Positions 1,430 through 31,131 are shown, counted from the first letter of the stretch. The stretch is 64,000 nt of DNA from an uncultured delta proteobacterium (GCA_963776085.1 CAVZMS010000079.1:14508-78507), one strand, 5' to 3'. Translations and numbers: made by a program. Notes: generated from the letters alone by a model not told the origin.

Positions 1430-2194
1430 ATGGGGTGGATCATCTCTATTTCAAACCAGAAAGGCGGTGTAGGAAAAACTACAACAGCGGTAAATCTGGC
1501 GGCATCTATCGCGGCTTCGGGAAAAAAATCTCTGCTTATTGACTGCGATCCCCAGGGAAACGCCACCACAGGTCTGGGAATAGATAAATTGGAGTTACAA
1601 GCAGGTCTTTATGATTTCATGCTCGGTTCTGAACCTGAGAAGAATGTTATCATTGAAACCTGCGTGTCGAGATTGTCCCTCATAGGGGCCACGAGGGCTT
1701 TGATCGGGGCGGAAATAGAGATGTATAATGAGAGTAACAGGGAGTTTCTTTTAAAAAAGAGCCTTGTGGAGGTTAAAAATAGATATGATTATATCTTTTT
1801 AGATTGCCCTCCTTCCCTGGGGTTTCTGACCTTGAACGCCATTACGGCAGCTGATTTTGTTTTGGTCCCTCTTCAGTGTGAGTATTACGCCCTTGAAGGT
1901 TTGAGTCAACTTTTAAATACACTTAAGGCCGTCAAAAAAGGCCTTAATCCTAGCCTAAAGATTGTCGGGATAGTATTAACCATGTATGATTCCCGTAATA
2001 ATCTCTCCTCGCAGGTGGAGGAAGAGGTTCGAAGACATTTCAAAAGAACGATCTTTAATACTATCATCCCACGTAATGTTCGGTTGAGCGAAGCGCCGAG
2101 CCATGGGAAACCCATCATTCTATATGACGTAAACTCCAAAGGTGCCCAGAGTTACCTTAAATTGGCAAAGGAAGTTATCAGCCGGGGAGGTTGA
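1430..2194 (+). CDS. parA: chromosome partitioning ATPase ParA/Soj
   Basis: 254 aa with deviant Walker A NQKGGVGKTT. Full-length similarity pattern to Soj, followed directly by parB. Confidence 0.93.
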   Translation: MGWIISISNQKGGVGKTTTAVNLAASIAASGKKSLLIDCDPQGNATTGLGIDKLELQAGLYDFMLGSEPEKNVIIETCVSRLSLIGATRALIGAEIEMYNESNREFLLKKSLVEVKNRYDYIFLDCPPSLGFLTLNAITAADFVLVPLQCEYYALEGLSQLLNTLKAVKKGLNPSLKIVGIVLTMYDSRNNLSSQVEEEVRRHFKRTIFNTIIPRNVRLSEAPSHGKPIILYDVNSKGAQSYLKLAKEVISRGG

Positions 2195-2196
2195 CA

Positions 2197-3042
2197 ATGA
2201 CTAAACGAAAGGCATTGGGAAAGGGATTATCGGCCCTGATTCCAGAAGCGGATGAGTTTGAAGCGGAAGGGGGAAATTATTTTCAGTGCCCTATCGAATC
2301 AATCGAGCCAAATCCCTTACAGCCCCGCCAGGTCTTCGATAATGACGCCCTAAAAGATCTGGTACAATCAGTAAAGGAAAAAGGAATTATCACGCCTGTC
2401 ATTGTAAGCAAGGCAGAAAAAGGCTATCGTCTTATTGCAGGTGAGCGGCGCTGGAGGGCCGCTCAAAAGGCAGGATTAACAAGGATTCCCGTTGTGGTAC
2501 GAGAAACTACCCCAATTGATTCCCTTGAGCTGACCATTATCGAAAACATCCACAGAAAAGATCTGAATCCCATAGAGGAGGCCAGTGCCTATAAAAGATG
2601 GCTGGAGATCTCTAATACGACCCAGGAGGTCCTTGCAAAAAGGGTGAGCAAAGAACGATCCACGATTACAAATCTTTTAAGATTATTAACCCTGCCCAAG
2701 GCCATTCAGCAGAATATTGTCGATGGCAGCCTTTCCATGGGTCACGCGCGGGTCCTGGCCGGGATGAAGAGCGCGAGCGATCAGATTCGAGTCAGGGATA
2801 TAATCTTAAAAAAAGGGCTTTCGGTCAGGCAGACAGAGGATCTTATTAAGAAAGACCGCCCCGCAAGAAGTTCAAAAGAGAATAGATCTGAAGAGAAATA
2901 TTACCTTCAATCCCTTGCTGACAATCTAAAAAGGGTATTGGGGACAAAGGTATCAATCAAAAAGAGCGGGAAAAAAGGATATATCAATATCTATTTCTAT
3001 TCTGATGAGGAATTAGGACGCCTTCTTGATCTCTTGACTTAA
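2197..3042 (+). CDS. parB: chromosome partitioning protein ParB/Spo0J
   Basis: ParB motifs LIAGERRWRAA and an HTH region. I prefer the ATG at 2197 (GGGGAGG SD 6-7 nt upstream) over the TTG at 2191 used in the ORF track. Confidence 0.9.
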   Translation: MTKRKALGKGLSALIPEADEFEAEGGNYFQCPIESIEPNPLQPRQVFDNDALKDLVQSVKEKGIITPVIVSKAEKGYRLIAGERRWRAAQKAGLTRIPVVVRETTPIDSLELTIIENIHRKDLNPIEEASAYKRWLEISNTTQEVLAKRVSKERSTITNLLRLLTLPKAIQQNIVDGSLSMGHARVLAGMKSASDQIRVRDIILKKGLSVRQTEDLIKKDRPARSSKENRSEEKYYLQSLADNLKRVLGTKVSIKKSGKKGYINIYFYSDEELGRLLDLLT

Positions 3043-14882: not shown

Positions 14883-14959
<77 letters not shown>

Positions 14960-16947: not shown

Positions 16948-19197
16948 TTAGCGCTCCTCAAGGGCCTCCAGTTCGGCATCGGTATGACGGAGGCGTTTTG
17001 CAATAGCAAGGGCCAGGCGGGCAAAAACCTGGACGCCAAAGACAGGGTCGGCATGGCTCTGTTCGTTTAAACGCGAACGGGAAAGGACATAGAGATCGGT
17101 CGGGACCTTCGCCTCAACGTCTGCCGAACGGATGCTGCCGTCTATAAACGATAGCTCACCGAAAAAGTCTCCCTGGCCAATTGTGGCAAGGTGATATTGC
17201 GTGTCCCCCTTCAGGGGCAGCAGGATCCGGACGCTGCCACGCCGTACAAGGTAGATCTTATCGCCAGGGTCACCCTGGGAGACGACCTTCTGTCCCTGCG
17301 GTACCGACACCTCCATTACACAGGCGGCCAGGCCGCTAAGCGTCTTCTCATCGAACTTTCGAAACAGTTCAAAGTCCTTCAGTTCAAGAGGTTGCGCGCT
17401 ATCTTCCATCGCCATGTTGTAGGCCTCTAAAATACGCTCCTCCATCCATTCCAGTGCGCTGTCGAGTGTCTCAGAGATCATAACGCCGCCTCCCTCCCTG
17501 ACAACACCCATCTGCGCCAGATAGCGCTCGAAGTCACGCTGGTCATGCAGGCCTGACGCCATTCCGGTGAACAAGAGACGTCCGCCGCGTTCCTCCAGCT
17601 GCGCCTGCATCTGTTCGAAGAGGTGGGCCGCGGTGTAGTCCATCGATTGGACCCGACGCATATCGAGGAGAATATAGCGCTTCGTCCTAAGATCGGTCTC
17701 CAGTTGCGTAAAAAGCTGGTCCGTGGTGCCGAAGAAGAGATTGCCCTGGAGTTCACAAAAGATCGCCTCGTCGCCATGCTGTCTAAGGACCTCTCTCTCC
17801 GCCTCAAGACGGCTGGTCTTTGAGGAGACCTGGTCCAGTCCCCTCTTCCGGCGGATGACCGAACCCCTGATCTGATCCCGGATAAACAATAAAATTGCAA
17901 GTGCTATACCAACCCCGGAAGCAGCGATCAGGTCAACGGTGACGGCGACAATGATCACCCCGGCGATCACGGCAAAGTCCAATCGCCCGGCAGGGTAGCG
18001 CAGCAGCCGTAACATGTTCCTCCAGTCAAACATCCGATAGGATATGACCAGCAGGATGCCTGCCAGTGCGCCGATTGGGACCCAGGCAACAAGTCGGCCC
18101 AGCAAGAGAAGGGTCATGACCACGAGTACGCCCTCAATCACGCCCGAACGAGGCGTTCGGCCGCCGCTGGTCACATTAACAAGGGTGGGACCCATTGTTC
18201 CGGCGCCCGGTATACCGCCGGCCATGAATGATACAAAGTTTCCGATCCCCTGACCCATAAGCTCGCGATCCGACTTGTGCCTGCTGCGTGTCAGGGCGTC
18301 GAGCACTACGCAGGTCTTCAATGTATCGATTGATAGCAGCACTGAAAGGGTAAGGGCAGGGATGAGGATGATCTGGATGGATATAAGGTCCACGGAAAGA
18401 AGGGATGTCACCCGACCCGTAACTGCCTCAAAAAAAGAGCCGGAGGTATGGATCGGCCCGATGATGAAGGGATTACCCTGCAGCTCCAGCAGCCCCGAAG
18501 AAAAAGAGGCAAGAACGAAATAGGCGAGAATCCCGCCCAAAAGGCCAAGGATGGGGGCAGGCACCTTTCTGGTAATCCTGGGTGTTGTTATCATTACCGC
18601 TATGGTGACAAGTCCGATGACTAGCCCCTGCCATTTCCATAGTTCCGGTGAGATCAACCCTTGGATAAGCGGTGTCCCTGTCGGCAGACCGAACAGTTTT
18701 GGGAGCTGGCCGAGGGCGATGATGACCCCGACCCCGGATAGATAGCCGCTAACTACCGGGTAAGGGACAAACTTGATCAATCGGCCTCCGCCTATGGCCC
18801 CGTAGAAGACCTGAAGCCCGGCTGAAAATAAAGCGGTCAGGGCCATCAAAGGAGGATATCAGCCGGATTGATACCCATTGGCACCTTCCAGCAAGAAGAC
18901 CGGCCACTAATGCGGACAGGACCGCTGCCGCCGGCGCGCAGGGGGCCGATATAAGTCCTCCTGTCCTTCCGAAAAGCGGTGCAATGAGGCCGAGTGCGGC
19001 CGCGCCAATGATCCCGGCCAAGGCCCCCTGCCCACATACTCGTTCCCCATGGCGGAGTATACGAGGACACCGAAGGCTATTGAGGATGGCAGCGCTACAA
19101 GCATGGCAGCCAGCCCGCCCCATAGATCATCGACCCATGATGATGTTATATGTTCAACCTGGGCAGTTTGATCGCTCATAAACGCATATCTCTCCAT
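16948..19197 (-). pseudogene. SulP-family anion transporter with C-terminal STAS and cyclic-nucleotide-binding domains, two N-terminal frameshifts
   Basis: Three frames: 19197-19020, 19123-18860 and 18849-16948. The SulP TM core is followed by STAS (..ILLDMRRVQSMDYTA..) and cNMP-binding (GDFFGELSFIDGSIRSADV) domains. The gene is visibly GC-richer than the flanking FHA/GAF genes. Confidence 0.85.
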
Positions 19198-19287
19198 TTA
19201 TTACAGAATACACTAATACAATCTTTTTTGGAATCCTGATAATAAATCTTTGAACTTTAGAATATTGAAGTTTATTCTTCTCTTCGA

Positions 19288-19330
19288 AATTCATCATTCA
19301 ATATTGGAAATTCAACATTCAATCCAATCC
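19288..19330. repeat. short ATTCAAN heptamer-periodic block
   Basis: attcatc attcaat attggaa attcaac attcaat ccaatcc. The reverse complement resembles 5418-5450 and the interior of LHR copy 7. Confidence 0.5.
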
Positions 19331-19493
19331 TTCTTCGCCATGCGTTCTGCCTCAATATACCAGTAAAGCAACACAGATGGAAGTGAATTTGAAAAATCAT
19401 ATCAAATTAAAATTAGAGTCTTCATATTCAGGATGGTGATCCGAAAATCGTTTAAATTTTAAAGAGTTATAAACATACATAAGAAAATTAGGG

Positions 19494-19523
19494 TTGACAT
19501 TACACCCTACTGTGATCTATTAT
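19494..19523 (+). promoter_or_regulatory. candidate sigma70-type promoter upstream of ppk1
   Basis: TTGACA (19494-19499), an 18-nt spacer, then TATTAT (19518-19523), about 190 nt upstream of the ppk1 ATG. Confidence 0.45.
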
Positions 19524-19715
19524 TTCAAAAAATTGCTGGGAAATATTTGATTTCACATCTGATTACAGCCCTGAACTCAATTCGGAATCCGTATTATTCG
19601 ATAAATCAGTATTTAATTAGTGAACTATTATCAATTCAATATTTCCCATTCCCCATTGAGTCAGTTCATTAACATGAGTCCCATTATCTGCATTGAACGG
19701 AGGATAAATGGATTT

Positions 19716-21857
19716 ATGGAAAAAGGAACCGCATCCGCGCTAAAAGAGGGAGAAATCAAACGTAATTCCCCAGATATCCTCATCAATCGCGAGTTAAGTT
19801 GGCTCAACTTCGCACGCCGCGTCCTTGCCCTGGTAGAAGACCCTAACGTCCCCCTGCTTGAGCGTGTCAAATTTGCCGGTATTATGGGCACACTATATGA
19901 TGAGTTTGCAATGAAACGTATCGGCGGGCTCAAGCGTGGGATTAAGAAAAAGAAACTATCCCACGGCGGACTGACGCCTACGGAGGAACTGCGCGCGTGC
20001 CAGAATGAATTGCACAGACAGGCTGTCCTTGTTTCCCGTCTGGTGCGTGATAAACTCCGGCCTGCTTTGGCGGAGGCAGGGATCCCTATTTTGGAATATA
20101 AGGATCTTAACAAGACCCAACGCGCACAGATGAAGCGATATTTCCGTAAATCAGTGGAGCCTATTCTTACGCCGTTAGCCGTGGACGTTTCGCATCCCTT
20201 CCCCTTAATCAGCAACCTCGGGATAAACATCGCGGTCATCGTGACGGAAAAGAAGAAAAAACGCAATCGTTTCGTGCGTATTAAAGTGCCGACAAACCGC
20301 CCTAGGTGGATTCCTATTCCCGAAAGTTCCGGTTATGTACCTTTAGAGCAGGTGATCGCATCCAACCTCAAAGTGATATTTCCCAAGGCCTCCCGAGTGA
20401 AGTATTATTTCTTCCGCTTAAACCGCGTGGTCGATGATAATCCATGGGCTCAAAGTATTCTGGATGATCCTGAAGCCGATCTTGCGCCAGGATCCCTCAT
20501 CGGTATGGTAACAAACGATCTGACGGCCCGAAAATTTGCCGGCGTGGTACGTCTCCAGGTTAGCTCAGGAATGCCTAAAAAGTTACAACGCTGGCTCGCA
20601 AAGCAGCTTAATGCCGACATAGAGGATCTTGAACAAACGGATGGCCTGTTGGGTCTTGTGGACCTGACGAAATTTCAAGTAGAGGGTCACCCGGAACTGC
20701 GCGATCCACCTCATGAACCCGTGACCCATCCTCGTCTGCGCCGTTTAGACCCCGACAATCCCTCAGAGATATTCGCTGAGATCTGTCGGGGCGATATCCT
20801 GCTTCATCATCCTTACCACAGCTTTGACACTTCCGTATTGCGTTTTCTGCAGTGCGCCGCAGTTGATCCTCAGGTGCTTGCCATCAAACTTACTATTTAT
20901 CGCACCAGCAGCCAATCTCCGATCATCCAGGCGCTGGTTGAAGCGGCTCGCCATGGCAAGCAAGTGGCAGTGCTGGTAGAGATAACCGCGCGCTTCGATG
21001 AAGAGCCCAACGTAGCATGGGGCAAATTATTGGAGAGGGAGGGGGTGCACGTCGCCTATGGTGTTGAGCGGCTAAAGACCCATGTAAAATTGGCCCTTGT
21101 CGTCCGCGAGGAAGAGGATGGTATTCGCCGCTATGTCCATGTAGGAACAGGCAATTATCACACAGTTACCGCCCGACTTTATGAAGACCTGGGCATCCTA
21201 AGCTGCGATCCGGAACTAGGCGCTGATGTCGCGACCCTATTTAATGAACTAACCGGTGCCATATCTTCTCCAGACTACAATAAGTTGATGGTGGCCCCAC
21301 ACAATATGTACGATCGATTCATCAGCTTAATCCACCGAGAGATCCAACATTGCCAAGAAGGGCGCCCTTCAGGGATTCGCGCCAAGATGAATCAGCTCCA
21401 GGACGAGCGCATCATTGGCGAACTCTATCGCGCCAGCCAGGCGGGCGTGCCGATCAGCCTCAATGTACGAGGGTTGTGCTGCCTGCGTGCAGGGGTCCCA
21501 GGGCTTTCTGAGAACATCCGCATCTTCAGCACACTCGGCCGTTTCCTGGAACACGGCCGTATATATCGCTTTGAAAATGGCGGTGAACCGGAATTCTTCA
21601 TAGGTTCGGCCGACTGGATGCGTCGCAACCTTGACCGTCGTATGGAAAGCATCATGCCCGTTACAGATCCCAAGATAAAACAGGAGTTGGAGGAGATCCT
21701 GCGCGTATTAGAGAACGACAACTATTCGGCCTGGGATATGCAGCCTGACGGCAGTTATGTGCTTCGGCATCCGCAGGAAGGCGAGGAATGTCGCGCCGCT
21801 CAAAAAGTGTTCATTGACCTTGCCAACAGGAAATCGCGGGGAAGGGGCAAGGCCTAA
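19716..21857 (+). CDS. ppk1: polyphosphate kinase 1
   Basis: The pattern NRELSWLNFARRVL.. and the two PLD-like C-terminal domains are typical of PPK1. I prefer ATG 19716 (GGAGGA upstream) over the ORF-track start at 19620. Confidence 0.92.
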   Translation: MEKGTASALKEGEIKRNSPDILINRELSWLNFARRVLALVEDPNVPLLERVKFAGIMGTLYDEFAMKRIGGLKRGIKKKKLSHGGLTPTEELRACQNELHRQAVLVSRLVRDKLRPALAEAGIPILEYKDLNKTQRAQMKRYFRKSVEPILTPLAVDVSHPFPLISNLGINIAVIVTEKKKKRNRFVRIKVPTNRPRWIPIPESSGYVPLEQVIASNLKVIFPKASRVKYYFFRLNRVVDDNPWAQSILDDPEADLAPGSLIGMVTNDLTARKFAGVVRLQVSSGMPKKLQRWLAKQLNADIEDLEQTDGLLGLVDLTKFQVEGHPELRDPPHEPVTHPRLRRLDPDNPSEIFAEICRGDILLHHPYHSFDTSVLRFLQCAAVDPQVLAIKLTIYRTSSQSPIIQALVEAARHGKQVAVLVEITARFDEEPNVAWGKLLEREGVHVAYGVERLKTHVKLALVVREEEDGIRRYVHVGTGNYHTVTARLYEDLGILSCDPELGADVATLFNELTGAISSPDYNKLMVAPHNMYDRFISLIHREIQHCQEGRPSGIRAKMNQLQDERIIGELYRASQAGVPISLNVRGLCCLRAGVPGLSENIRIFSTLGRFLEHGRIYRFENGGEPEFFIGSADWMRRNLDRRMESIMPVTDPKIKQELEEILRVLENDNYSAWDMQPDGSYVLRHPQEGEECRAAQKVFIDLANRKSRGRGKA

Positions 21858-21909
21858 CGAGTTAATTTTATACAGGCCGTCATGAACGGAATCTAATAAA
21901 AATCAAATC

Positions 21910-23494
21910 ATGCTCAAGAATATTAAATTCAATCTGCCAAGCGGATATGATCTCCAGCAATTAATCACCGGATTGGCCGATCAATATGCGATCAAAAAAG
22001 AGCCAGATCATGCTGCAATCGTCAGATTTTATGATACGTTTGACTGGCGATTATTCAACAAATCACTTGTTTTGTACACGTCCGGTGACAAGTTGTGCTT
22101 ACGCAAACTAACTAATTACGAAATTTTACACAGCGTTGAAATCACATCTCCACCCGTATTTATATGGGAGTTTCCAGATAGTGAATTAAAAAAACAACTG
22201 GCACCGATAATAGAAGTTCGGGCACTTTTAAAGCTTGTTGAGTTACGATCCCGAGCGACGCCTTATCGTATTTTAAACCAGGATGAAAAAACAGTCCTGC
22301 GATTGGCCTATGAAGAAATTCGATCCTCTCGTGATAAGAACGCCCCATCGCTGATGACTCATTTATGGCTGCAACCAGTTAAGGGATACCCCAAATATTC
22401 TCGAGAGGTAGCCAAACGATTCGAAGAAGCAGGGCTCACAATGAATAAAGAAGATGATATATATTTTAAAGGACTGGAGGCTGTTGATAGAAAACCGGGT
22501 AGTTATTCTGCAAAAATTGACATTCAACTCGATCCTGATATGCGCGCTGATAATGCAACCAGATCCATCTTGCGATTTTTATTGCGCATAATACGGATAA
22601 ACGAAACCAAGATTGAAAAGGACATTGATACGGAATTCGTTCATGATTTCCGTGTGGCTATTCGCAGAACCCACTCGGCGTTAGGCCAGATCAAATACGT
22701 CTTCCCGTCGAACATTACAAATCGTTTTAAAAAAAATTTTGCTTTTGTGGCCAACCTCTCCAATGAGTTAAGGGATCTGGATGTCTACCTTCTCAATAAG
22801 GATAAATACAAAACAAAGCTTCCACCTTTATTGCGTGACGACATTGATCCACTTTTTGACTATCTAAAGAAGAAACGATCAAAGGCGTTACAGAAACTCG
22901 TTCGCGGATTAAAGTCTAAAAAATATGCAAAGATTTTAAACGACTGGGAGGCATTTTTAAATAAACCGCAACCGGCTTCTGCAACTCAATCAAATGCTGC
23001 AGTCCACATAATTGATCTGGCACGCAAAAGAATTTATAAGAAATACCAAAGCGTTGTAAAGGCCGGCAACCTGATAAGCGAGAACACTGATGACAAGATG
23101 CTGCATGTTCTAAGAATTCATTGTAAAAAATTACGATATTTGATGGAGTTTTTCTCCGGTCTGTTTCCCTTCAAAAAGATTGACGCCTTGATTATGCAAT
23201 TAAAGAAATTACAGGACAACTTAGGGGTTTTTAACGATCTCCGTGTTCAGGAAGAACAGCTTTTGAACGATCACCAAGGAATTGCCTGTGATTAAGGGGC
23301 AGTCGGATAAAACACTTATGGCAATTGGGAGCCTTGTTGGAACCTTGGGCAGAGAAAGAAAGACAGTAAAAGATGTCTTTGCCAAGACCTTTATGGATTT
23401 CGCATCCCCGGCAAATAAAGAGTTATTCCAGGAACTTTTCGCCTCACAAACATCCAGGGTGTCTCATGACAATATTGGCCGTATACAGCAATAA
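21910..23494 (+). pseudogene. CYTH-like / CHAD two-domain protein, one frameshift near 23280
   Basis: The N-terminal ~190 aa have the CYTH-type FYDTFDWRL motif but no EXEXK. CHAD helices follow (VHDFRVAIRRTHSAL, LHVLRIHCKKLRYLMEFF). The last ~70 aa continue in another frame (23282-23494). Confidence 0.75.
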
Positions 23495-24212
23495 AGGCGG
23501 TGTTGGAAAGACCGCAGCAGCGGTGAATCTGTCCTATCTGGCATCACAGACAGGCGCTAAAACCCTCCTCTGCGATCTGGATCCTCAAGGTTCCGCAACC
23601 TATTATTTTCGGATAAAACCCAAACTTAGGTCCGGGGCAAAGGGATTGATTAAAGGAGGCAGGCAGGTTTATAAAAATGTTAAAGGCACAGATTATGAGA
23701 AACTGGATCTGCTGCCTGCGGATTTCTCCCTCCGCAATCTGGATATAACGTTTAATAAATTGAGGCGTTCAAAAAAAAGGCTGAGGAAAATCTTAACCCC
23801 GTTTAAGGGTGAATATGACCTTATCGTGCTGGACTGTCCGGTTACCATCAGCATCCTAGCTGAAAACATATTCAATGCCGTGGACTATATCCTTGTCCCC
23901 ATGATTCCAACAACGCTCTCCGTGCGCACCCATAGACAATTATTATCTTTCTGCAAAAAGAAAGGCTATAATACCAAAAAAATCTACACCTTTTTTTCAA
24001 TGGTCGATATGCACAAGAAGATGCACAAGGAACTTATGGCAACAGCATCAACGACGTTTGACAATGTCTTAGAAAACCTTATTCCTTATCTGGCACAGAT
24101 CGAAAACATGGGAATTCACCGCGAGCCGGTCGCAGTCTTCTCGCCAGCATCAACGGCTTCAAAGGCATATCAAGACCTATGGGACAGAGTTCAAAAAATT
24201 ATACTCTCTTAA
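23466..24212 (+). CDS. ParA/MinD-family P-loop ATPase (orphan, no ParB partner)
   Basis: 249 aa starting MTILAVYSNKGGVGKTAAAVNLS (deviant Walker A with signature Lys), Walker B LIVLDCP. It overlaps the CHAD gene 3' end by 29 nt. Confidence 0.85.
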   Translation: MTILAVYSNKGGVGKTAAAVNLSYLASQTGAKTLLCDLDPQGSATYYFRIKPKLRSGAKGLIKGGRQVYKNVKGTDYEKLDLLPADFSLRNLDITFNKLRRSKKRLRKILTPFKGEYDLIVLDCPVTISILAENIFNAVDYILVPMIPTTLSVRTHRQLLSFCKKKGYNTKKIYTFFSMVDMHKKMHKELMATASTTFDNVLENLIPYLAQIENMGIHREPVAVFSPASTASKAYQDLWDRVQKIILS

Positions 24213-24243
24213 AAAGTTCAAGACATCATATTATGAGGATGCT

Positions 24244-24702
24244 ATGGCCAAGGAGATCGAAAGGAAATTCCTGTTAAAGGGAGGCTTCTGGCCACATGAA
24301 ACTGTAATGAGATGTCGCCAGGGTTTTTTAAACAGCTTTAAAGAGAGGACTGTGCGTGTGCGCACCATAGGCGATAAAGGTTACTTGACCGTAAAGGGAA
24401 TTGCGGTTGGGGCATCCCGCATGGAATTTGAATATGAAATACCCTACCAAGACGCCATTACACTACTGGACATCTGTGAAAAACCCCTGATTGAGAAAAA
24501 CCGTTATAGTGTAAAGGAAGGAGATCTTATCTGGGAAATTGACGAATTCTTCGGAGAAAACCAGGGATTAATCATTGCCGAAGTGGAATTGGAGAGCGAA
24601 GATCAAGAGTTCCCCAAACCGGATTGGGTTGGGGAGGAGGTAACCGGAGACCCTCGCTATTTCAATGCCAACCTGATTAAAAATCCCTATACAAAGTGGT
24701 AG
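24244..24702 (+). CDS. CYTH-domain triphosphate tunnel metalloenzyme
   Basis: 152 aa with N-terminal EIERKFLL (EXEXK motif) and typical CYTH strand pattern (RVRTIGDKGYLTVKG.., EFEYEIP). Confidence 0.85.
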   Translation: MAKEIERKFLLKGGFWPHETVMRCRQGFLNSFKERTVRVRTIGDKGYLTVKGIAVGASRMEFEYEIPYQDAITLLDICEKPLIEKNRYSVKEGDLIWEIDEFFGENQGLIIAEVELESEDQEFPKPDWVGEEVTGDPRYFNANLIKNPYTKW

Positions 24703-24714
24703 AGGAAATAAATC

Positions 24715-25212
24715 ATGAAAATCCTTTATCTGGTCAGACATGCCAAATCAAGCTGGAAATATACCGAGCTGGACGATTTTGAGAGACCCCTAAACAGGCG
24801 TGGCAGAGAGAGTCTTATTTTAATGGGGGAATTTCTGAAAAAAGTTGAGGTGGCGCCGGACCTGATAATATCCAGCCCGGCAACAAGGGCTGCCATGACT
24901 GCAAGGATTATTGCCGATACGATCAATTACCCTCTCGAAAAAATTCTATATAACGAAACAATTTATTTATCCGATGAAGATGTCTTACTCCATGTTATTC
25001 AAGATATAAACGATGACGTGAAAAAGGCGATGTTAATCGGGCATAACCCGGCATTGACTGATTTAGGCAACTATATAAGTGACCAACGGATCAGTAATAT
25101 CCCTACCAGTGGCATATTTTGCTTGGAATTCAACATTTCATCATGGCTAAAGATTGGCGAGCGCTGCGGCAGATTGAAATTCTTTGAGTTTCCTAGGAGG
25201 CACGCTACATGA
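24715..25212 (+). CDS. SixA-type histidine phosphatase
   Basis: 165 aa with N-terminal LYLVRHAKS (RHG/RHA catalytic motif) and GHNP near residue 110. Confidence 0.8.
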   Translation: MKILYLVRHAKSSWKYTELDDFERPLNRRGRESLILMGEFLKKVEVAPDLIISSPATRAAMTARIIADTINYPLEKILYNETIYLSDEDVLLHVIQDINDDVKKAMLIGHNPALTDLGNYISDQRISNIPTSGIFCLEFNISSWLKIGERCGRLKFFEFPRRHAT

Positions 25213-25224
25213 TTTCCGCTGCAT

Positions 25225-25947
25225 TCAATTCAATTTTTTTCCCGCCCTGAACATCTTCACATAAATATCAGGAAGGTGGTGCTTTTTCAGCCCCCTAACT
25301 ACCTCTTCCACCGGATAGGGAATTCGAAAATGTTCCACGATTATATTTTTTGATGAAAGCTTAAGAACTGCAAAAGATGCCCGTGGATCCCCATCAAACA
25401 TGCGCCCTGCACTGCCGGGATTGATGAAATGAACTCCATCGACGATTTTATAATAGGGCACATGAGAATTGCCCATGATGTGAATCTGATAAGGAGAGGA
25501 TTTTGATAGTCGACGGAAACGGCTTTCAGGAGAAAAGGGGAACAGCAACTCATCCGGATCATCAATTGTCCCATGAAATACCCCGATGCGGATATGGCCT
25601 ATGATAAGATTCGTCTGTTTGGGTAAAGAGTTCAGATATGATCTATTCTCAGGAAGCAAGATGTCGGATGTCCAAAAATACATCACCCGCTTTTCTTCTT
25701 TTTTCGGGGTCTTTAACTTCTTGCCCTTTAAAATCCTTAGAACCAGCCGATCAGTATTCCCTAATATGCTGATGCTTTTCCCCTTCTCACGAAACCATTG
25801 GATCGTTTCATTGGGGAAAGTACTATAAACCGTGAAATCCCCCGTGTTAATAATCCAATCAAATCCGGCAGGCTTGATGTACTTCTCTATCGCTTTTAAG
25901 GCCGGATAATTTGCGTGAATATCGCCTAGTAAAAGTATTTTCTTCAC
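25225..25947 (-). CDS. metallophosphoesterase (calcineurin-like, YfcE/MJ0936-like)
   Basis: 240 aa with motifs LLGDIHAN, NTGDF, GNTD, HGT and GNSH. Confidence 0.8.
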   Translation of the reverse strand: MKKILLLGDIHANYPALKAIEKYIKPAGFDWIINTGDFTVYSTFPNETIQWFREKGKSISILGNTDRLVLRILKGKKLKTPKKEEKRVMYFWTSDILLPENRSYLNSLPKQTNLIIGHIRIGVFHGTIDDPDELLFPFSPESRFRRLSKSSPYQIHIMGNSHVPYYKIVDGVHFINPGSAGRMFDGDPRASFAVLKLSSKNIIVEHFRIPYPVEEVVRGLKKHHLPDIYVKMFRAGKKLN

Positions 25948-25953
25948 AACAGA

Positions 25954-26529
25954 TCAGGAGCTGGTTTTTTTGAGTATTTTAGAAAACGACTGTAGTTTCC
26001 GGGATAATTTTTTACATTTTCGCCTTTTTGGTTTTTTCCCCAAATCTTTCAACATTGCATTCAAGGCATAGGCCTTTTTGACTATATTTTTCGAATCCTT
26101 CTTGGAAAGCGTTTTATCTGTTTGATCCAATCCATCAAGCCGTTTCATGAGGGTTTTGGCCCTTTTTTTAAAATCGATATATAATTCATGATACTTCTTT
26201 TTTCCCAAGGACTTTAGATCTTCACTTGCCCGTTTTAAACTCCTTTTAAGAACCCTGATCTGTTTTTTTAAATCCTGCTTGACCTCAATACCCTTCTTCT
26301 CTCCGCCTGATACGGTATCCGGGGCTGTTTTCTCAGGTTTTTCCCCATAAGATTCACTAACGGCATCCTTTATCAATTTTGCATAATATCCGCCAATGGT
26401 TTCTATCTGGGCCAGTTTATCCAGTGGCGTTTCATAAAGCTGTTTAATGGTTGTGATCCCCAAATTATTGAGCGATTTCATACGTGAAGCACCGATATAT
26501 TTCACCTGAGTAAGATCGTCCGTCTTCAT
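25954..26529 (-). CDS. helix-hairpin-helix domain protein with long Lys/Arg-rich helical tail
   Basis: Start at MKTDDL (GGAGG SD). The N-terminus (VKYIGASRMKSLNNLGITTIKQL) is HhH-like. The C-terminal ~110 aa are extremely basic (KKQIRVLKRSLKRA.., KKPKRRKCKKLSRKL). I recognise no family. Confidence 0.6.
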   Translation of the reverse strand: MKTDDLTQVKYIGASRMKSLNNLGITTIKQLYETPLDKLAQIETIGGYYAKLIKDAVSESYGEKPEKTAPDTVSGGEKKGIEVKQDLKKQIRVLKRSLKRASEDLKSLGKKKYHELYIDFKKRAKTLMKRLDGLDQTDKTLSKKDSKNIVKKAYALNAMLKDLGKKPKRRKCKKLSRKLQSFSKILKKTSS

Positions 26530-26648
26530 AATTACCTCCTTGTGTAATGGCCGCATCCCGTAGCCGTTTTTAAAACGCCTTAGATTCTGCCAGGTCCTAT
26601 ATTATTAAAGACCGTTAGGTCCCTAATTCCATACACCCTAAATCGATA

Positions 26649-28129
26649 CTACAATGCCGCCTCAATGGTATCACACAGGGTCTTCAGAACTTTAATGCGT
26701 GCATAATATTTGCTGTTGCCTTCAACTATTGTCCATTGAGCGATATCGGTACTGGTGCGATCTACCATATCGCAGACAGCCTGTTCATAAGCATCCCATT
26801 TCTCTCGGTTACGCCAGTCTTCCTCGGTGATCTTAAAGCGCTTGAACCCGATCTTCTCCCTCTCTTTGAACCGCCGAAGTTGTTCCTCCTTGCTTATAGC
26901 CAGCCAGAATTTGACGATCAGTATATTGTTCCTCACTCAGTTGTTCCTCAAAGTCATTTATTTCGCTGTATGCCCGCATCCAGTCCGCTTCCGAACAATA
27001 TCCTTCCACCCGCTCCACGAGTACCCGGCCATACCAGGTGCGATCGAAGATGGTAACCCTCCCTTTACCGGGCACATGCCGCCAGAAACGCCACAGATAG
27101 GGCTGAACCTTTTCCTCATCGGTGGGGGCGGCAACCGGGATAATGTTGTAATATCTGGCATCGAGCGCGGCCGTGACCCTGCGTATATTTCCTCCCTTGC
27201 CGCCCGCATCGGCACCCTCATAGGCCACGACGAGCGACATCCTTTTCTTGAACTCGGGGCTCCGCATGAGTATGTTCAGCCGACCCTGGTATTTCAACAA
27301 TTCTTTCTTGTATGCCGCCTTTGTCAATGTCAGGGACATGTCCAGTGACCTGAGCATATTGAGCTTGTCGACACGGGGAGGCAAAGGTGCCGTCACGACC
27401 GCTGCCGGAGGCTTTTTATACTCCAGCCGTTTACGCAGGGTTTCAAGCAGGATCTTGCCCACTGTAAGGCTGCGATAACGTGCATCGACCCCTTCCACAA
27501 TGATCCAGGGGGCTACACCGGTGCTTGTTTCACGCAGTGTATACTCCGACCACTTGCGGAACCTATCGTATATCTTGAAACGCTCCCAGTCTGTATCGTT
27601 CACCCGCCAGCGCATCTTCGGGTCTTTTTCCAGAGCCTTCAGGCGCTTCTCCTGGGCCTTTTTAGAGAGGTGAAACCAGAATTTGATGATAACCGCCCCT
27701 TCATCCGAGAGCATCTTTTCGAAACGGTTTATCTCATCGATCCTCTGGTCAAGCTCCTCTTTCTTGCCCTTCCCGACAACACGATTGATGATGGGGTACG
27801 TGTACCAGGACCCGAAAAATATCCCGATTTTGCCCTTGGGCGGCAGGGCCTGCCAGAAACGCCACATAGGCGGCCGCTCCTTTTCCTCCGGGTTCGGCTC
27901 TCCCATGGCATGGACCTGAATATTGCGCGGATCCATCCATTCGTTGAGCAGGTTAACGGTTTCACCCCTCCCTGCGCCGTCCACACCGCCCGCCAGTATG
28001 ATCACAGGGAAGGTAGCGGTTCTCTGCCAGATCGAACTGGGCATTGAGGAGGGCTTCCCTCAGTTCAGGCACTTCCTTTTCATAAGTCTCTTTGTCAATC
28101 TTGTGTCCAAGTTCCGCTGACTCAAACAT
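26649..28129 (-). pseudogene. ppk2: two-domain polyphosphate kinase 2 (PAP/class II-like), two frameshifts
   Basis: The true start appears to be MFESAELGHKIDKETYEKEVPELREALLNAQF at 28129 (GGAGG SD), with shifts near 28020 and 26900. The N-domain P-loop is degenerate (GVDGAGRGET); the C-domain P-loop is intact (GADAGGKGGNI). Confidence 0.85.
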
Positions 28130-28491
28130 TTCAACCTCCTTGGTCTTGAATTGTTCAAAAGTAAATATGATAAATGTTTTTTGTCAAAATATCAGAAAAA
28201 TATTTATTTGTAAATAAATATAAACCTTATGTTATCTATATTACTTCTTGCCAAGACGCTCCAAATGAATGCCTGCCCACCGCTCTGAACTTTTTTATAA
28301 AATGCGTTTTTACTATCTTCCGTCGCATGTGCACAAAAAATTGTGATCCATGCACAAAATTATATGCAATATCCTCCTCTCATGAAAATCATCACTTATC
28401 ATCCTTCGTTTATTCCATGCTTAAATGTAAATCGATTCTTTCTGATAACCTTATGAAATAATGAGGGAATCAGCTTTTTTGCCCATGATGG

Positions 28492-28985
28492 GGGACGTCC
28501 TTAAATAAGTAAATAACATGACAAGATTTTATTGATATGCTATTTATTAAAGCATGCTAAGACAATCTCGATTAGAAGCACCGGGGTTTTGCACCATGCC
28601 ATTATCAGGGGCATAGAACGCCGCAAGATATTCAGTGATGACAAGGACGGGGACAACTTTATTGAACGGCTTGATATCCTCCTGCCCAAAGCCCATATCA
28701 CATGCTATGCATGGGCTCTCTTATCCAATCATGCATATTTCCTATTCAAAACCGCAAAACCCATGAAAATGGGGACGGGAGCCGGATAATGGCAAGGGTT
28801 GATGCAAGGGGTTTATATTGCTACTGGGCGGCAAGAGAGCTGAGATATCCTTTGGCAGAACTTGCCAGAAGATTGAACATAAAGGCTCCCGGAGTTGTAT
28901 ATGCTGTCAGAAGAGGCGAAAGTATCTCCAAAGAGTCTGATTACAACTTGATAGATTGAGTTAGTTACTTAATTAAGGACGTCCC
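28492..28985 (+). mobile_element. decayed RAYT/IS200-like (Y1 HUH transposase) element bounded by 26-bp inverted repeats
   Basis: Left end GGGACGTCCTTAAATAAGTAAATAAC (28492-28517) versus reverse complement of the right end GGGACGTCCTTAATTAAGTAACTAAC (28960-28985): 24 of 26 identical. Confidence 0.7.
28532..28959 (+). pseudogene. REP-associated tyrosine transposase-like gene remnant (internal deletion)
   Basis: N-terminal piece LHHAIIRGIERRKIFSDDKDGDNFIERL..CYAWALLSNHAYFLF, where the HUH position reads HAY. The C-terminal piece in another frame is GLYCYWAARELRYPLAELARRLNIKAPGVVYAVRRGE (HTH). The catalytic middle is missing. Confidence 0.7.
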
Positions 28986-29330
28986 TCTCAAGCTCATAAA
29001 AAAAGTGCTAAAGACGAAAAAACTGTTTTTTAATACATTCGGATATGCTATAGGATCAATTTAATATACATATTCATTTATATTTAATTATTTGATTCCC
29101 CTATCAATTCAAACAAATGAAAATTGTAACCCAATTTCCTGTCCACTTTTAATTGGGACCATAAATCATCAGCGGGACTGGTAGAGCTAAATTGAAAATA
29201 GCTATTTATAAATGAGTACGATTCGTCAGATTTTTTGATCTTCAATATTATATCTACCGTATCATTTTCGTATAATATGTATTAAGACGTATCAGCAATT
29301 AAGCATAAAGAACACTTTCTTCCAGGAGGA

Positions 29331-31131
29331 ATGAAAATGTGGAAGACGATCAGTTCAGGGTTGGCCGGCGTTGAACCCGCCGTAAGACAATTTCTCCCAC
29401 CCTGTCAAATACGCTGCCCAATCAACGAGGATATCCAAAGGACTAATGTCCTTATATCCCTCCTTCCCGAAGACCCGGAATTGGCTACAGAGGGGATTAT
29501 CCAGATCGGTGATTATCTTTATGAGAAAAACCCCTTCTTTCCTGTATGCGGTTACGTGTGCGGTCTGTGTGAACTGGAATGCAATTATCAGTCAAAAGGA
29601 GGTGCTATAAGGAGGAGGCTCCTCAAGAGGTTTATCGCTGATACATACATCTATCATATGGATAAAAAAGAAGAACTTTCCATAGTAAAGAACAAGGAGA
29701 ATGTCGCGGTTATTGGAGGGGGGCCAGCGGGGCTCATGTGTGCATATGACCTCAGCAAACGGGGATACAGGGTCACTATCTTTGAGGCCTCAGATCGCCT
29801 GGGAGGGGCACTATGGTTGATCCCCCGATACCGGTTGCCGGAAAAGGTGCTTTCCTCCACCCTCGAGAATATCGTCAGGCTGGTTGGGGTGGATGTCAAA
29901 TACAACACCAAGATAGGCAGAGGGCAAGTTAAACCTGGAAAAGCTCAGAAATGAGGGATATCAGGCCGTCTTTATCGCAATCGGTACCCCGGCCCCCCGG
30001 ACCCTCACCTTTGGAAGGAAAGAGGTCAAGGGCCAGGAACTCTCCGGGGTCATGTACGGCCAGACATTCCTCTACGAGGTCAGCCACGGTAATATAAAGC
30101 CCAATTATTTTAAAGGGAAAAAGGTCATGGTTATCGGCGGCGGGAACGTTGCCTTTGATGTGGCCAGGACCGCGAGAAGGCTTGGGGGAGATACGAGCAT
30201 CATCTGCCTGGAATGTGAGGACAGGAATTCCATTGACCGGATACCGGCAGACTGGGATGAGATACGTGGCGCATGGGAAGAGGGGATAAAGATCATCTAT
30301 TCCAGGGGTGTGAGCCAGATAATAGAGACAGGCGAAAAAATGCTTAAGATCGAGTGTCCCAAATGCACCAGTGTTTATGACCCAGGTTTTAACCCTAAGT
30401 TCGATATGACGGACATGATCACACTTGAAGGCGATATACTGATCATCACGGTGGGGCAAGGGCCGGATATCCAGTCTCTTAAGAAGGAGGATCTTCTCAA
30501 CGAAAGGGGGCAACTTGCCATAGACCCGCTGACCCTCCAGAGCCTTAAAAAGGAATGGGTATTTATTGGAGGGGATGTGCGTAGGATAGGTTTCATGGTG
30601 GATGCCATGAAGGATGGACTGACTGCCGCCGAATCCATTGAGAGATATCTGAAAGGGCTGCATATCAGTGAGGGGAGAAAAAGGGATTTTGAGTCTCAGG
30701 ACATCCCTAGGAGGAGATCATATGAGGCAGAACCCGAGGTGCTGTGGATCCCGCCGGAAAAGAGGATGCACTTCCAGCTCTTCGAAAAGGGCTTCACCCT
30801 GACCGAGGCTATTGAAGAGGCCAAACGTTGCCTTACATGCGGCCCTTGTATCTCATGCAAGGCATGCCTCTCCGTGGGTATCCAGGAACAGATAGCCCCT
30901 GTCGAGGTGAATCCTGACCGGTGTTGCGGGTGCGGGATATGCGTTTCTGTCTGTTACTACGGCGCGGCCCTGTCAAAAGAGATTGAATCCAAGCGGATCT
31001 CCATAACAGATACGTTTAAATGCAAATCCTGCGGCATGTGCGTTGTGGCCTGCCCTTCCAATGCAAGGAAGCTAGTGGATGACAGTTTGGAACGAAGGAC
31101 AGAAGCAGTTTACGCTGCCCTTCAGGGATAA
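29331..31131 (+). pseudogene. GltD/NfnB/HdrA-like FAD/NAD(P)-dependent oxidoreductase with C-terminal 2x[4Fe-4S] ferredoxin domain, one frameshift
   Basis: N-terminal Cys cluster (CGYVCGLCELEC), dinucleotide folds VAVIGGGPAGL and VMVIGGGNVAFD, and C-terminal CCGCGICVSVC / CKSCGMCVVACP. The frame changes near 29925. Confidence 0.75.

Follow-up and report, generated by a model that had tools for sequence, protein, structure and literature searches.

A ParA-type ATPase paired with a CHAD protein

The stretch of DNA analysed here (64,000 nucleotides from an uncultured delta proteobacterium, CAVZMS010000079.1:14508-78507; hereafter the window) has Desulfobacteraceae metagenome-assembled genomes (MAGs) as its closest relatives and carries, on the plus strand, a gene for a ParA-type ATPase preceded by a gene for a protein with a CYTH-like and a CHAD domain. 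With modest confidence, we read the two genes as one module, whose CHAD protein would connect the ATPase with polyphosphate granules and so serve their positioning or inheritance. As judged from sequence comparisons, polyphosphate granules are the most plausible target of the ParA, and the CHAD protein its adaptor, because the ParA gene is nearly never found without a CHAD gene, usually overlaps it, and is sometimes fused to the domain relatives of CHAD. Granule positioning had already been put forward in an original prediction made from the window alone; the association with CHAD has since been borne out by synteny and by the distinctness of the ParA subfamily, while the positioning itself is read from that association. 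The window context also supports a polyphosphate role, with ppk1, PPK2, a NeuTTM-like triphosphatase and a SixA-like phosphatase encoded around the pair. The features that matter first are the following.

21910-23494, plus strand: CYTH-like/CHAD protein gene, 527 aa once repaired (Pfam CHAD, 8.7e-50; as sequenced, its open reading frame (ORF) ends at 23295)
23466-24212, plus strand: ParA-type ATPase of the CHAD-linked subfamily, 248 aa (Pfam AAA_31, 8.6e-34)
23487-23534, plus strand: deviant Walker A motif SNKGGVGKTAAAVNLS, ParA residues 8-23, with signature Lys10 and Lys15/Thr16 (read directly)
23466-23494, plus strand: 29-nt overlap of the repaired CHAD frame with the ParA start (identical 29-nt overlap in the relatives L086 and L084, where the CHAD gene is intact)

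Conservation of the CHAD-ParA pair

After ORF calling in every locus retrieved, the ORFs were searched with profiles of the window proteins. The genome sample comprised 42 loci whose ParA is at least 40% identical to the window ParA, and 38 loci caught by the same NKGGVGKT pattern but carrying other ParAs (at most 33% identical) served as controls. A second, independent metagenome sample comprised 80 loci seeded from a ParA-CYTH fusion (P0178, 43% identical to the window ParA), of which the 78 with any upstream sequence were informative. In 41 of the 42 genome loci, the position directly 5' of ParA is taken by a CYTH-like/CHAD gene (about 505-530 aa). Such a gene also precedes ParA directly in every informative metagenome locus (78 of 78), and the loci retrieved by exact-protein look-up agree on this pairing. 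Around the control ParAs, CHAD, CYTH, PPK1, PPK2 and SixA-like genes were absent within 10 kb in 38 of 38 loci, whereas a polyphosphate kinase gene (PPK1 or PPK2) falls within this distance in 11 of the 42 family loci. Loss of synteny in relatives had been named beforehand as an outcome that would speak against the proposal; with CHAD, the reverse was found.

The two genes are also tightly spaced. In 94 of 120 CHAD-ParA pairs the reading frames overlap (by 4 nt in 75, by 1 nt in 12 and by more in 7), 23 further pairs are 0-21 nt apart and three are wider, so that 117 of the 120 lie within 21 nt. The hosts include Desulfobacterota (Desulfobacteraceae and Desulfocapsaceae), Poribacteria, Chloroflexi-type MAGs and Pontiella and, among proteobacteria, Rhodobacterales and other Alphaproteobacteria, Nitrosomonas, Candidimonas, Pusillimonas and Colwellia.

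No second conserved partner was found 3' of ParA in these loci, where the downstream genes belong to many unrelated groups. The largest group is a NeuTTM-like CYTH gene, present in 19 of the 42 genome loci; a SixA-like gene recurs in 8/42 genome and 11/80 metagenome loci. Two adaptor candidates had been proposed for the window, the CHAD protein and a basic helix-hairpin-helix (HhH) protein. As the sole invariant neighbour of ParA, the CHAD protein gains support; the HhH gene drops out, as it occurs in 3 of the 42 loci, all of them close Desulfobacteraceae-type loci.

At the edge of the family stand two genes, L039:3090-4481 from a Burkholderiaceae MAG (42% identity) and L168:5001-5747 from plasmid pMAQU02 of Marinobacter nauticus VT8 (39.6%). 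One is followed by a UPF0149 gene, and the other lies beside genes for pyruvate kinase, acetyl-CoA transferase and phbB, of polyhydroxybutyrate (PHB) synthesis. These two ParAs may be re-deployed members of the family.

The ParA gene and its motifs

The ORF that ends at 24212 extends in its longest form from 23373, and homology favours the ATG at 23466: a start codon is present at the equivalent position in 120 of 120 relatives, nine codons 5' of the Walker A lysine. The gene call in the 98%-identical relative L086 likewise gives 248 aa. The ORF and family assigned to it earlier are thus upheld, with a small correction in length, since the 249 aa originally given correspond to 248 aa plus the stop codon. 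The product also matches Pfam CbiA (1.1e-13).

The deviant Walker A described in the original prediction is there, and SNKGGVGKTAAAVNLS carries the signature lysine as K10. The pattern that defines the ParA/MinD superfamily (KGGxxK[ST] with an N-terminal signature lysine) is present, as are the aspartates of Walker A' and Walker B, along with a fold of the ParA/Soj type. Residues 8-16, SNKGGVGKT, do not vary among 68 close homologues and are conserved across 44 diverse members of the family, and YSNKGGVGKT is at least 90% conserved across the subfamily, in which K10, K15, T16, D37 and D39 (CDLDPQG) and D123 (LDCP) are invariant. In comparison with the relative L084, the ratio of nonsynonymous to synonymous substitution (dN/dS) is 0.066 for ParA, 0.23 for the CHAD gene and 0.20 for CYTH. 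These results show that the ParA motifs are intact and under strong purifying selection, and by both measures the ATPase looks competent.

The AlphaFold model of the ParA is moderate, with a pLDDT (predicted local distance difference test) of 68.5 and residues 40-104 below 50, and it was used for fold assignment only, not for surface mapping. The closest solved structures are those of chromosomal ParA/Soj (E about 1e-18, 22-27% identity, Foldseek TM score 0.73-0.75). By alignment and model, there is no MinD-like C-terminal extension, the protein ending with the last core helix (residues 230-247).

A sharply separated ParA subfamily

The best 120 matches in a collection of 5.8 billion proteins are 75-96% identical to the window ParA, and an exhaustive search of 50%-identity representatives yielded approximately 367 clusters at E <= 1e-30. 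Identities in the genome scan are bimodal, with 42 loci at 40-73% and the remainder at 33% or less; in an alignment, identity within the subfamily is 37-90% (median 57%) and that to other ParAs 18-36%. On these comparisons, the ParA of 23466-24212 belongs to a sharply separated subfamily. Among the curated NCBIfam models it reaches no cut-off: ParA_partition gives 77 bits (cut-off 180), BcsQ 58.5 (157.85), MinD (minD_bact) 46 (213), RepA 59 (348) and SopA 31 (725). Clustering within a subfamily of another known function had been named as an outcome that would overturn the proposal; what was found is a separate group, below all of these cut-offs.

The subfamily also differs in charge, with a median isoelectric point (pI) of 9.7 against 6.2 in other ParAs. 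At the four aligned Soj-type DNA-binding positions (the PRNVR and SKG regions, placed by alignment to the window's own chromosomal ParA), which we take to be equivalent to DNA-binding residues of Soj and of Myxococcus xanthus ParA, lysine or arginine is found in only 0-5% of subfamily members. One experimentally tested residue of this kind is R238 of M. xanthus ParA (PMC12462528). Since the Soj-type basic residues are absent, the classical mechanism with the nucleoid as matrix cannot be assumed. Twelve other basic positions are conserved specifically in the subfamily and, together with the pI of 9.7, point to some polyanion-binding surface on the predicted protein.

Relatives of the window ParA are annotated publicly as 'chromosome partitioning protein', and the label 'cellulose biosynthesis protein BcsQ' given at JGI is unsupported. 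We rejected a BcsQ identity, as the score of 58.5 bits lies under the cut-off of 157.85 and no bcs genes are nearby.

The public annotation and the closest solved structures would both suit an ordinary DNA-partition ParA, of a chromosome, a plasmid or an integrated element, that lies by chance in a polyphosphate cluster. We give this explanation almost no credence. The window has a canonical partition locus of its own about 20 kb away, with a perfect parS (TGTTCCACGTGAAACA, 1271-1286), parA (1430-2194) and parB (2191-3042), the last overlapping parA by 4 nt and encoding the domains ParB_N, HTH_ParB and ParB_C. That parS is the sole match in the 64-kb window, and Pfam analysis of the cluster around 23466 revealed no ParB-domain gene there; the original prediction was right that the ATPase is distinct from the chromosomal parA and has neither ParB nor parS nearby. 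In addition, adjacency to CHAD is kept across phyla, which contradicts chance placement, the ParA_partition score stays far under its cut-off, and the Soj-type DNA-binding residues are missing. Plasmids hardly contribute: a family-level match (at least 39.6% identity) was found on only 9 of 72,556 plasmid records, and the Paracoccus example is a large non-mobilisable replicon with CHAD, CYTH and pho genes.

In that example (Paracoccus marcusii pCP157_03, L167:1-7249), a CHAD-ParA-CYTH-NUDIX-CYTH run lies about 1.5 kb downstream of pstB-phoU-phoB, an arrangement that suggests control of the module by the phosphate-starvation regulon.

We consider it very improbable that the protein is a membrane-associated ATPase of the MinD kind, which would position a different structure and be linked to CHAD only secondarily. 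A weak similarity to models and structures of MinD, FlhG and BcsQ could be cited in favour and is to be expected of any superfamily member; no C-terminal amphipathic segment follows the last core helix, the MinD models stay far under their cut-off, and no minC, minE, flagellar or chemotaxis gene adjoins ParA in any locus.

The CYTH-like/CHAD partner protein

The C-terminal two thirds of the partner form a full CHAD domain, which covers positions 2-227 of the 228 in the Pfam profile and matches CtCHAD (PDB 6QV7) at 2.3e-48; the protein can thus be counted among the CHAD proteins, or 'phosins'. CHAD proteins bind polyphosphate and localise to granules (PMC6537752). The N-terminal 200-215 aa or so show no CYTH domain by sequence: of 10 diverse N-terminal domains, none matched Pfam CYTH, even with the threshold relaxed to E <= 1, and a comparison with NeuTTM-type CYTH by hhalign was negative. 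The AlphaFold model of this region (pLDDT 85.3) has the triphosphate tunnel beta-barrel fold, with a Foldseek probability of 1.0 to triphosphate tunnel enzymes (thiamine triphosphatase, SaTTM, AtTTM3 and YgiF; TM 0.43-0.56), so that the label 'CYTH-like', which the gene already bore, is correct at the level of fold. No ExExK catalytic motif occurs in strand 1 of the partner, and none is conserved in 41 sequences. Judging from the model, the N-terminal domain is CYTH-like by fold and probably non-catalytic.

An activating N-terminal peptide of the ParB, McdB or ParG kind was not found in the CHAD proteins, whose N-termini are variable and whose fold starts at about residue 4. A conserved C-terminal tail (GaL...F..F...lf) was considered as a ParA-specific motif and rejected; it probably represents the last helices of the CHAD fold, because CtCHAD, too, runs about 60 residues beyond the matched region.

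Gene fusions and the NeuTTM link

In six 50%-identity clusters (P0124, P0145, P0178, P0187, P0214 and P0268) the ParA is fused to a CYTH domain of about 210 aa. These domains were detected by Pfam and missed by a local profile of NeuTTM-type CYTH. At L087:4334-7566, a CHAD gene is followed by such a ParA-CYTH fusion. Two further clusters hold one fusion each, to CHAD and to a HAD phosphatase (P0159 and P0129, respectively); the CHAD-ParA fusion, from a single cluster, could be a frameshift artefact, and the HAD domain, also from a single cluster, resembles sucrose-6F-phosphate phosphohydrolase. Several other subfamily members, of 390-520 aa, have C-terminal extensions without a Pfam match.

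In Nitrosomonas europaea ATCC 25978 (L022:8484-11202), CHAD, ParA and CYTH genes form a run with overlapping stop and start codons, and the third gene, which overlaps ParA by 4 nt, is NE1496, that is, NeuTTM (2FBL, E 2.7e-99). The one NeuTTM paper searched (PMC3440374) makes no mention of a ParA or CHAD context.

Such fusions bear on the main rival to positioning, which is that the protein acts as a scaffold or regulator on the granule surface: an ATP-bound dimer, recruited by CHAD or bound to polyphosphate, would assemble or gate enzymes (the CYTH triphosphatase, PPK2, phosphatases), and granule position would be independent of the ATPase. A precedent of this kind is given by BcsQ and FlhG, each of which organises its own machinery. 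The recurrent ParA-CYTH fusions and the one ParA-HAD phosphatase fusion fit such a role, as do the CYTH genes often coupled directly 3' of ParA (such as the 4-nt overlap in L022), the very basic pI, the absence of Soj-type DNA-binding residues and a partner without an activating N-terminal peptide. We regard it as possible, though hardly probable: genes for CYTH, PPK and phosphatases each occur in a minority of loci, whereas CHAD is invariant; the partner's own CYTH-like domain lacks ExExK and so is probably no enzyme to regulate; and the nearest relatives in sequence and fold are partition ParAs, not BcsQ or FlhG.

A frameshift in the CHAD gene of the window

The original prediction placed the ParA start 29 nt inside the 3' end of the CHAD gene, and overlooked a frameshift. 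Compared with L086 (98% DNA identity), and as located also against L084, the window has one extra G at 23269 that shifts the CHAD frame. As sequenced, the CHAD ORF stops at 23295, and the ParA start is overlapped instead by a 70-codon ORF of a different frame (23282-23494), which matches full-length homologues at their C-terminus. Without the extra G, the CHAD gene encodes 527 aa that are 97% identical to L086 along the whole length. The 29-nt overlap accordingly holds for the repaired frame and for L086 and L084, but not for the sequence as it stands. The CHAD-ParA coupling is the ancestral state, because the repaired gene overlaps ParA by the same 29 nt as in these two relatives; in the window, it requires that the frameshift be a sequencing error.

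At least six frame disruptions are found in about 14 kb (16948-31131) by comparison with close relatives, whereas the smaller genes are intact. Besides the one in the CHAD gene, they include the following.

Near 26937 (extra T) and near 28004-28014 (second shift), minus strand: frame breaks in PPK2 (comparison with relatives)
About 18850-19040, minus strand: two compensating shifts, about 200 nt apart, in the SulP transporter (comparison with relatives)
About 29918-29996: split of an Fe-S flavoprotein gene (597 aa in L084)

A difference in length between the window and L086 at 21607-21875 was rejected as real, being explained by a run of N in L086.

These breaks could mean that the module is decaying in this genome, the CHAD and PPK2 frameshifts being real, the cluster turning into pseudogenes and the ParA lacking a working partner. 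The single-base insertions at 23269 and near 26937, seen against a 98%-identical relative, do not lie in homopolymer runs, and the further breaks in the transporter, PPK2 and flavoprotein genes within about 14 kb would suit decay as well. We nevertheless consider it improbable. Six or more breaks in 14 kb, two of them compensating within one gene, are more suggestive of indel errors in the assembly. The repaired CHAD protein keeps its 97% identity to L086 from end to end, also beyond the shift, and the ParA, CYTH, SixA-like, phosphoesterase and HhH genes are intact at 96-100% identity.

The polyphosphate cluster

On the plus strand, the run consists of ppk1, the CYTH-like/CHAD gene, ParA, CYTH and the SixA-like gene, separated by 52 nt, an overlap, 31 nt and 12 nt, respectively. 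Convergent on it, on the minus strand, are a YfcE-type phosphoesterase, an HhH and lysine-rich protein and a two-domain PPK2. Apart from the CHAD-ParA pair, the features are as follows.

19494-19523, plus strand: promoter-like site 5' of ppk1, TTGACA, an 18-nt spacer and TATTAT, 11 of 12 positions (consensus scan only)
19620-21857, plus strand: polyphosphate kinase 1 (ppk1), 745 aa, first gene of the run (all four PPK1 Pfam domains; 52 nt to the CHAD gene)
24244-24702, plus strand: stand-alone CYTH protein, 152 aa, NeuTTM-related (Pfam CYTH 1.1e-14; PDB 3TYP/2FBL (NE1496) 1e-16)
24715-25212, plus strand: SixA-like histidine phosphatase, 165 aa, last gene of the run (Pfam His_Phos_1 7.8e-11)
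25225-25947, minus strand: YfcE-type metallophosphoesterase, 240 aa (Pfam Metallophos_2 5.1e-20; NCBIfam yfcE 60.8 bits, cut-off 56.25)
25954-26529, minus strand: HhH and lysine-rich protein, 191 aa (weak Pfam HHH_5, 8e-4, below cut-off)
26649-28129, minus strand: two-domain PPK2, broken into three frames (Pfam PPK2 9.5e-95 and 1.6e-33 on two ORFs)

Promoter-like sites are in total no commoner in the window than expected from shuffled sequence, so the one at 19494-19523 is a lead rather than evidence. The CYTH gene reported earlier to follow ParA is confirmed by its Pfam match. The SixA-like protein scores 57 bits with NCBIfam sixA, under the cut-off of 74.5; the YfcE-type gene is limited to Desulfobacterota-type loci; and PPK2 is unbroken, at 493 aa, in L084 and L085. 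The HhH gene is 98% identical to a 191-aa gene of L086 and is present in three genome loci (L004-L006) and in L084, L085 and L086. Its product is a possible lineage-specific link between nucleoid and polyphosphate, and alongside ParA it could be a functional analogue of the histone-like tethers AlgP and PhaF.

Divergent from ppk1 lies a gene for a SulP permease with STAS and cyclic-nucleotide-binding domains (16948-19104, minus strand). A comparable SulP transporter adjoins the polyphosphate cluster in L085, and a SulP-STAS protein, with no cyclic-nucleotide-binding domain on record, does so in L002. The permease of the window may transport an anion (phosphate?) under regulation and belong to the cluster. 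The only Rfam match in the window at the gathering threshold is a tRNA gene (14883-14956, plus strand).

Proposed mechanism and points against it

Cargo-positioning ParAs have a dedicated cargo-binding partner encoded next to them; here this is the CHAD protein, whose binding to granules is taken from the literature (PMC6537752). In the mechanism that we propose, the ParA would be an ATP-dependent, dimerising switch that works with the CYTH-like/CHAD protein encoded just upstream. The latter would mark the granule as cargo, since CHAD domains are known to bind polyphosphate and to sit on granules, and would act as the partner of the ATPase. The ATPase would bind ATP, associate with a polyanionic surface and hydrolyse the ATP when stimulated by its partner, and repeated rounds of this would separate the granules and distribute them to both daughter cells, in the way that other ParA systems deal with plasmids and carboxysomes. 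In this scheme, the contact with CHAD, a stimulation of ATP hydrolysis, the surface involved (DNA of the nucleoid, or polyphosphate) and any effect on granule number, spacing and inheritance are inferred.

A variant, which we hold to be rather unlikely, takes polyphosphate itself as the matrix: the ATPase, uniformly basic and lacking the Soj-type DNA-binding residues, would bind polyphosphate in its ATP-bound state, the granule-bound CYTH-like/CHAD protein, itself catalytically inactive, would turn it off, and the ATP cycle would set granule number, size and spacing.

Several observations weigh against granule positioning. Positioning is inferred from gene association alone, and the non-basic Soj-type positions leave nucleoid binding, the base of the classical mechanism, unsupported. 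The structure model of the ParA is poor at residues 40-104, and the partner has no free N-terminal activating peptide as in ParB, McdB or ParG. Two family-level genes, those of L039 and of Marinobacter pMAQU02, have no CHAD neighbour; the enzyme fusions (CYTH and one HAD phosphatase) suit a scaffold or regulatory role at least equally well; and both the CHAD and the PPK2 gene are frameshifted in the window as sequenced. Finally, published phosin deletions reportedly affect granule formation little, as summarised in PMC13081873.

Significance

Polyphosphate granules are among the most widespread bacterial inclusions and in several species are evenly spaced or located at quarter-cell positions. 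The CHAD-ParA pair offers a specific two-gene candidate for this positioning, in hosts that can be cultured (Nitrosomonas europaea, Tritonibacter, Paracoccus marcusii, Desulfobacter latus and, apparently, Acidithiobacillus). It would represent a ParA system with a new cargo and a new class of adaptor, a proposal that rests on association. If true, CHAD 'phosins' would gain a function beyond polyphosphate binding, and were the matrix polyphosphate rather than DNA, the range of surfaces read by ParA-type switches would be wider. NeuTTM, a structurally solved triphosphatase, would gain a physiological context, and the misleading annotations of relatives ('chromosome partitioning protein', 'BcsQ') would be corrected.

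Comparison with known systems

Our literature search found no ParA assigned to polyphosphate granules, and polyphosphate is not among the cargos listed in a 2024 review of ParA/MinD systems. Both a 2025 review and a paper from 2026 leave granule positioning without an explanation and implicate no ParA in granule spacing so far (PMC13081873, PMC11894788); the 2026 paper states outright that the mechanism is unknown and notes that the granule pattern resembles ParA-mediated positioning. The earlier statement that no polyphosphate-dedicated member had been described therefore stands as regards an assigned granule role, but the cluster itself had already been drawn: in Acidithiobacillus, a folD-ppk-parA-CHAD cluster is conserved across the genus, with parA labelled as a plasmid or chromosome partition gene (PMC10892726, PMC6416229). 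Likened by description only, this is apparently the same module, a parA beside a CYTH-CHAD gene and ppk1, and those papers propose no granule role for parA.

AlgP of Pseudomonas aeruginosa and PhaF are histone-H1-like proteins that space polyphosphate or polyhydroxyalkanoate (PHA) granules along the nucleoid (PMC9239181, PMC11894788), and AlgP is the only published polyphosphate spacing factor that we found. They solve the same problem, even granule spacing, but do so as passive, lysine-rich DNA-binding tethers without an ATPase; their nearest analogue in the window is the HhH and lysine-rich protein at 25954-26529, not the ParA.

Work on NeuTTM has treated the enzyme in isolation. In the present loci its gene is an accessory: the window CYTH protein is related to it (1e-16), NE1496 itself lies 3' of a family ParA in N. 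europaea, and the gene occurs in fewer than half of the loci.

In sequence and fold, the closest system is chromosomal ParA/Soj (8RAY, M. xanthus ParA, 1.2e-18, TM 0.74), with the same signature lysine in the deviant Walker A and the same Walker A' and B aspartates. The window ParA differs from it in an identity of only 22-27%, in having no ParB or parS nearby, in the non-basic residues at the positions of the DNA-binding arginines and in a pI of about 9.7 rather than about 6.

The closest parallel in organisation is McdA/McdB, likewise a small ParA-type ATPase gene adjoining the gene of a cargo-bound partner, with a non-DNA cytoplasmic cargo for which even spacing and inheritance are expected. 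The similarity is at the level of the superfamily only (PDB McdA at E about 5e-7, ranking below Soj in Foldseek), and neither McdB nor carboxysome genes lie beside ParA in the approximately 120 loci examined. McdA uses the nucleoid as its matrix, whereas the subfamily described here is without the Soj-type DNA-binding residues; its partner is a CYTH-like/CHAD protein instead of McdB, and its cargo would be a granule of inorganic polymer.

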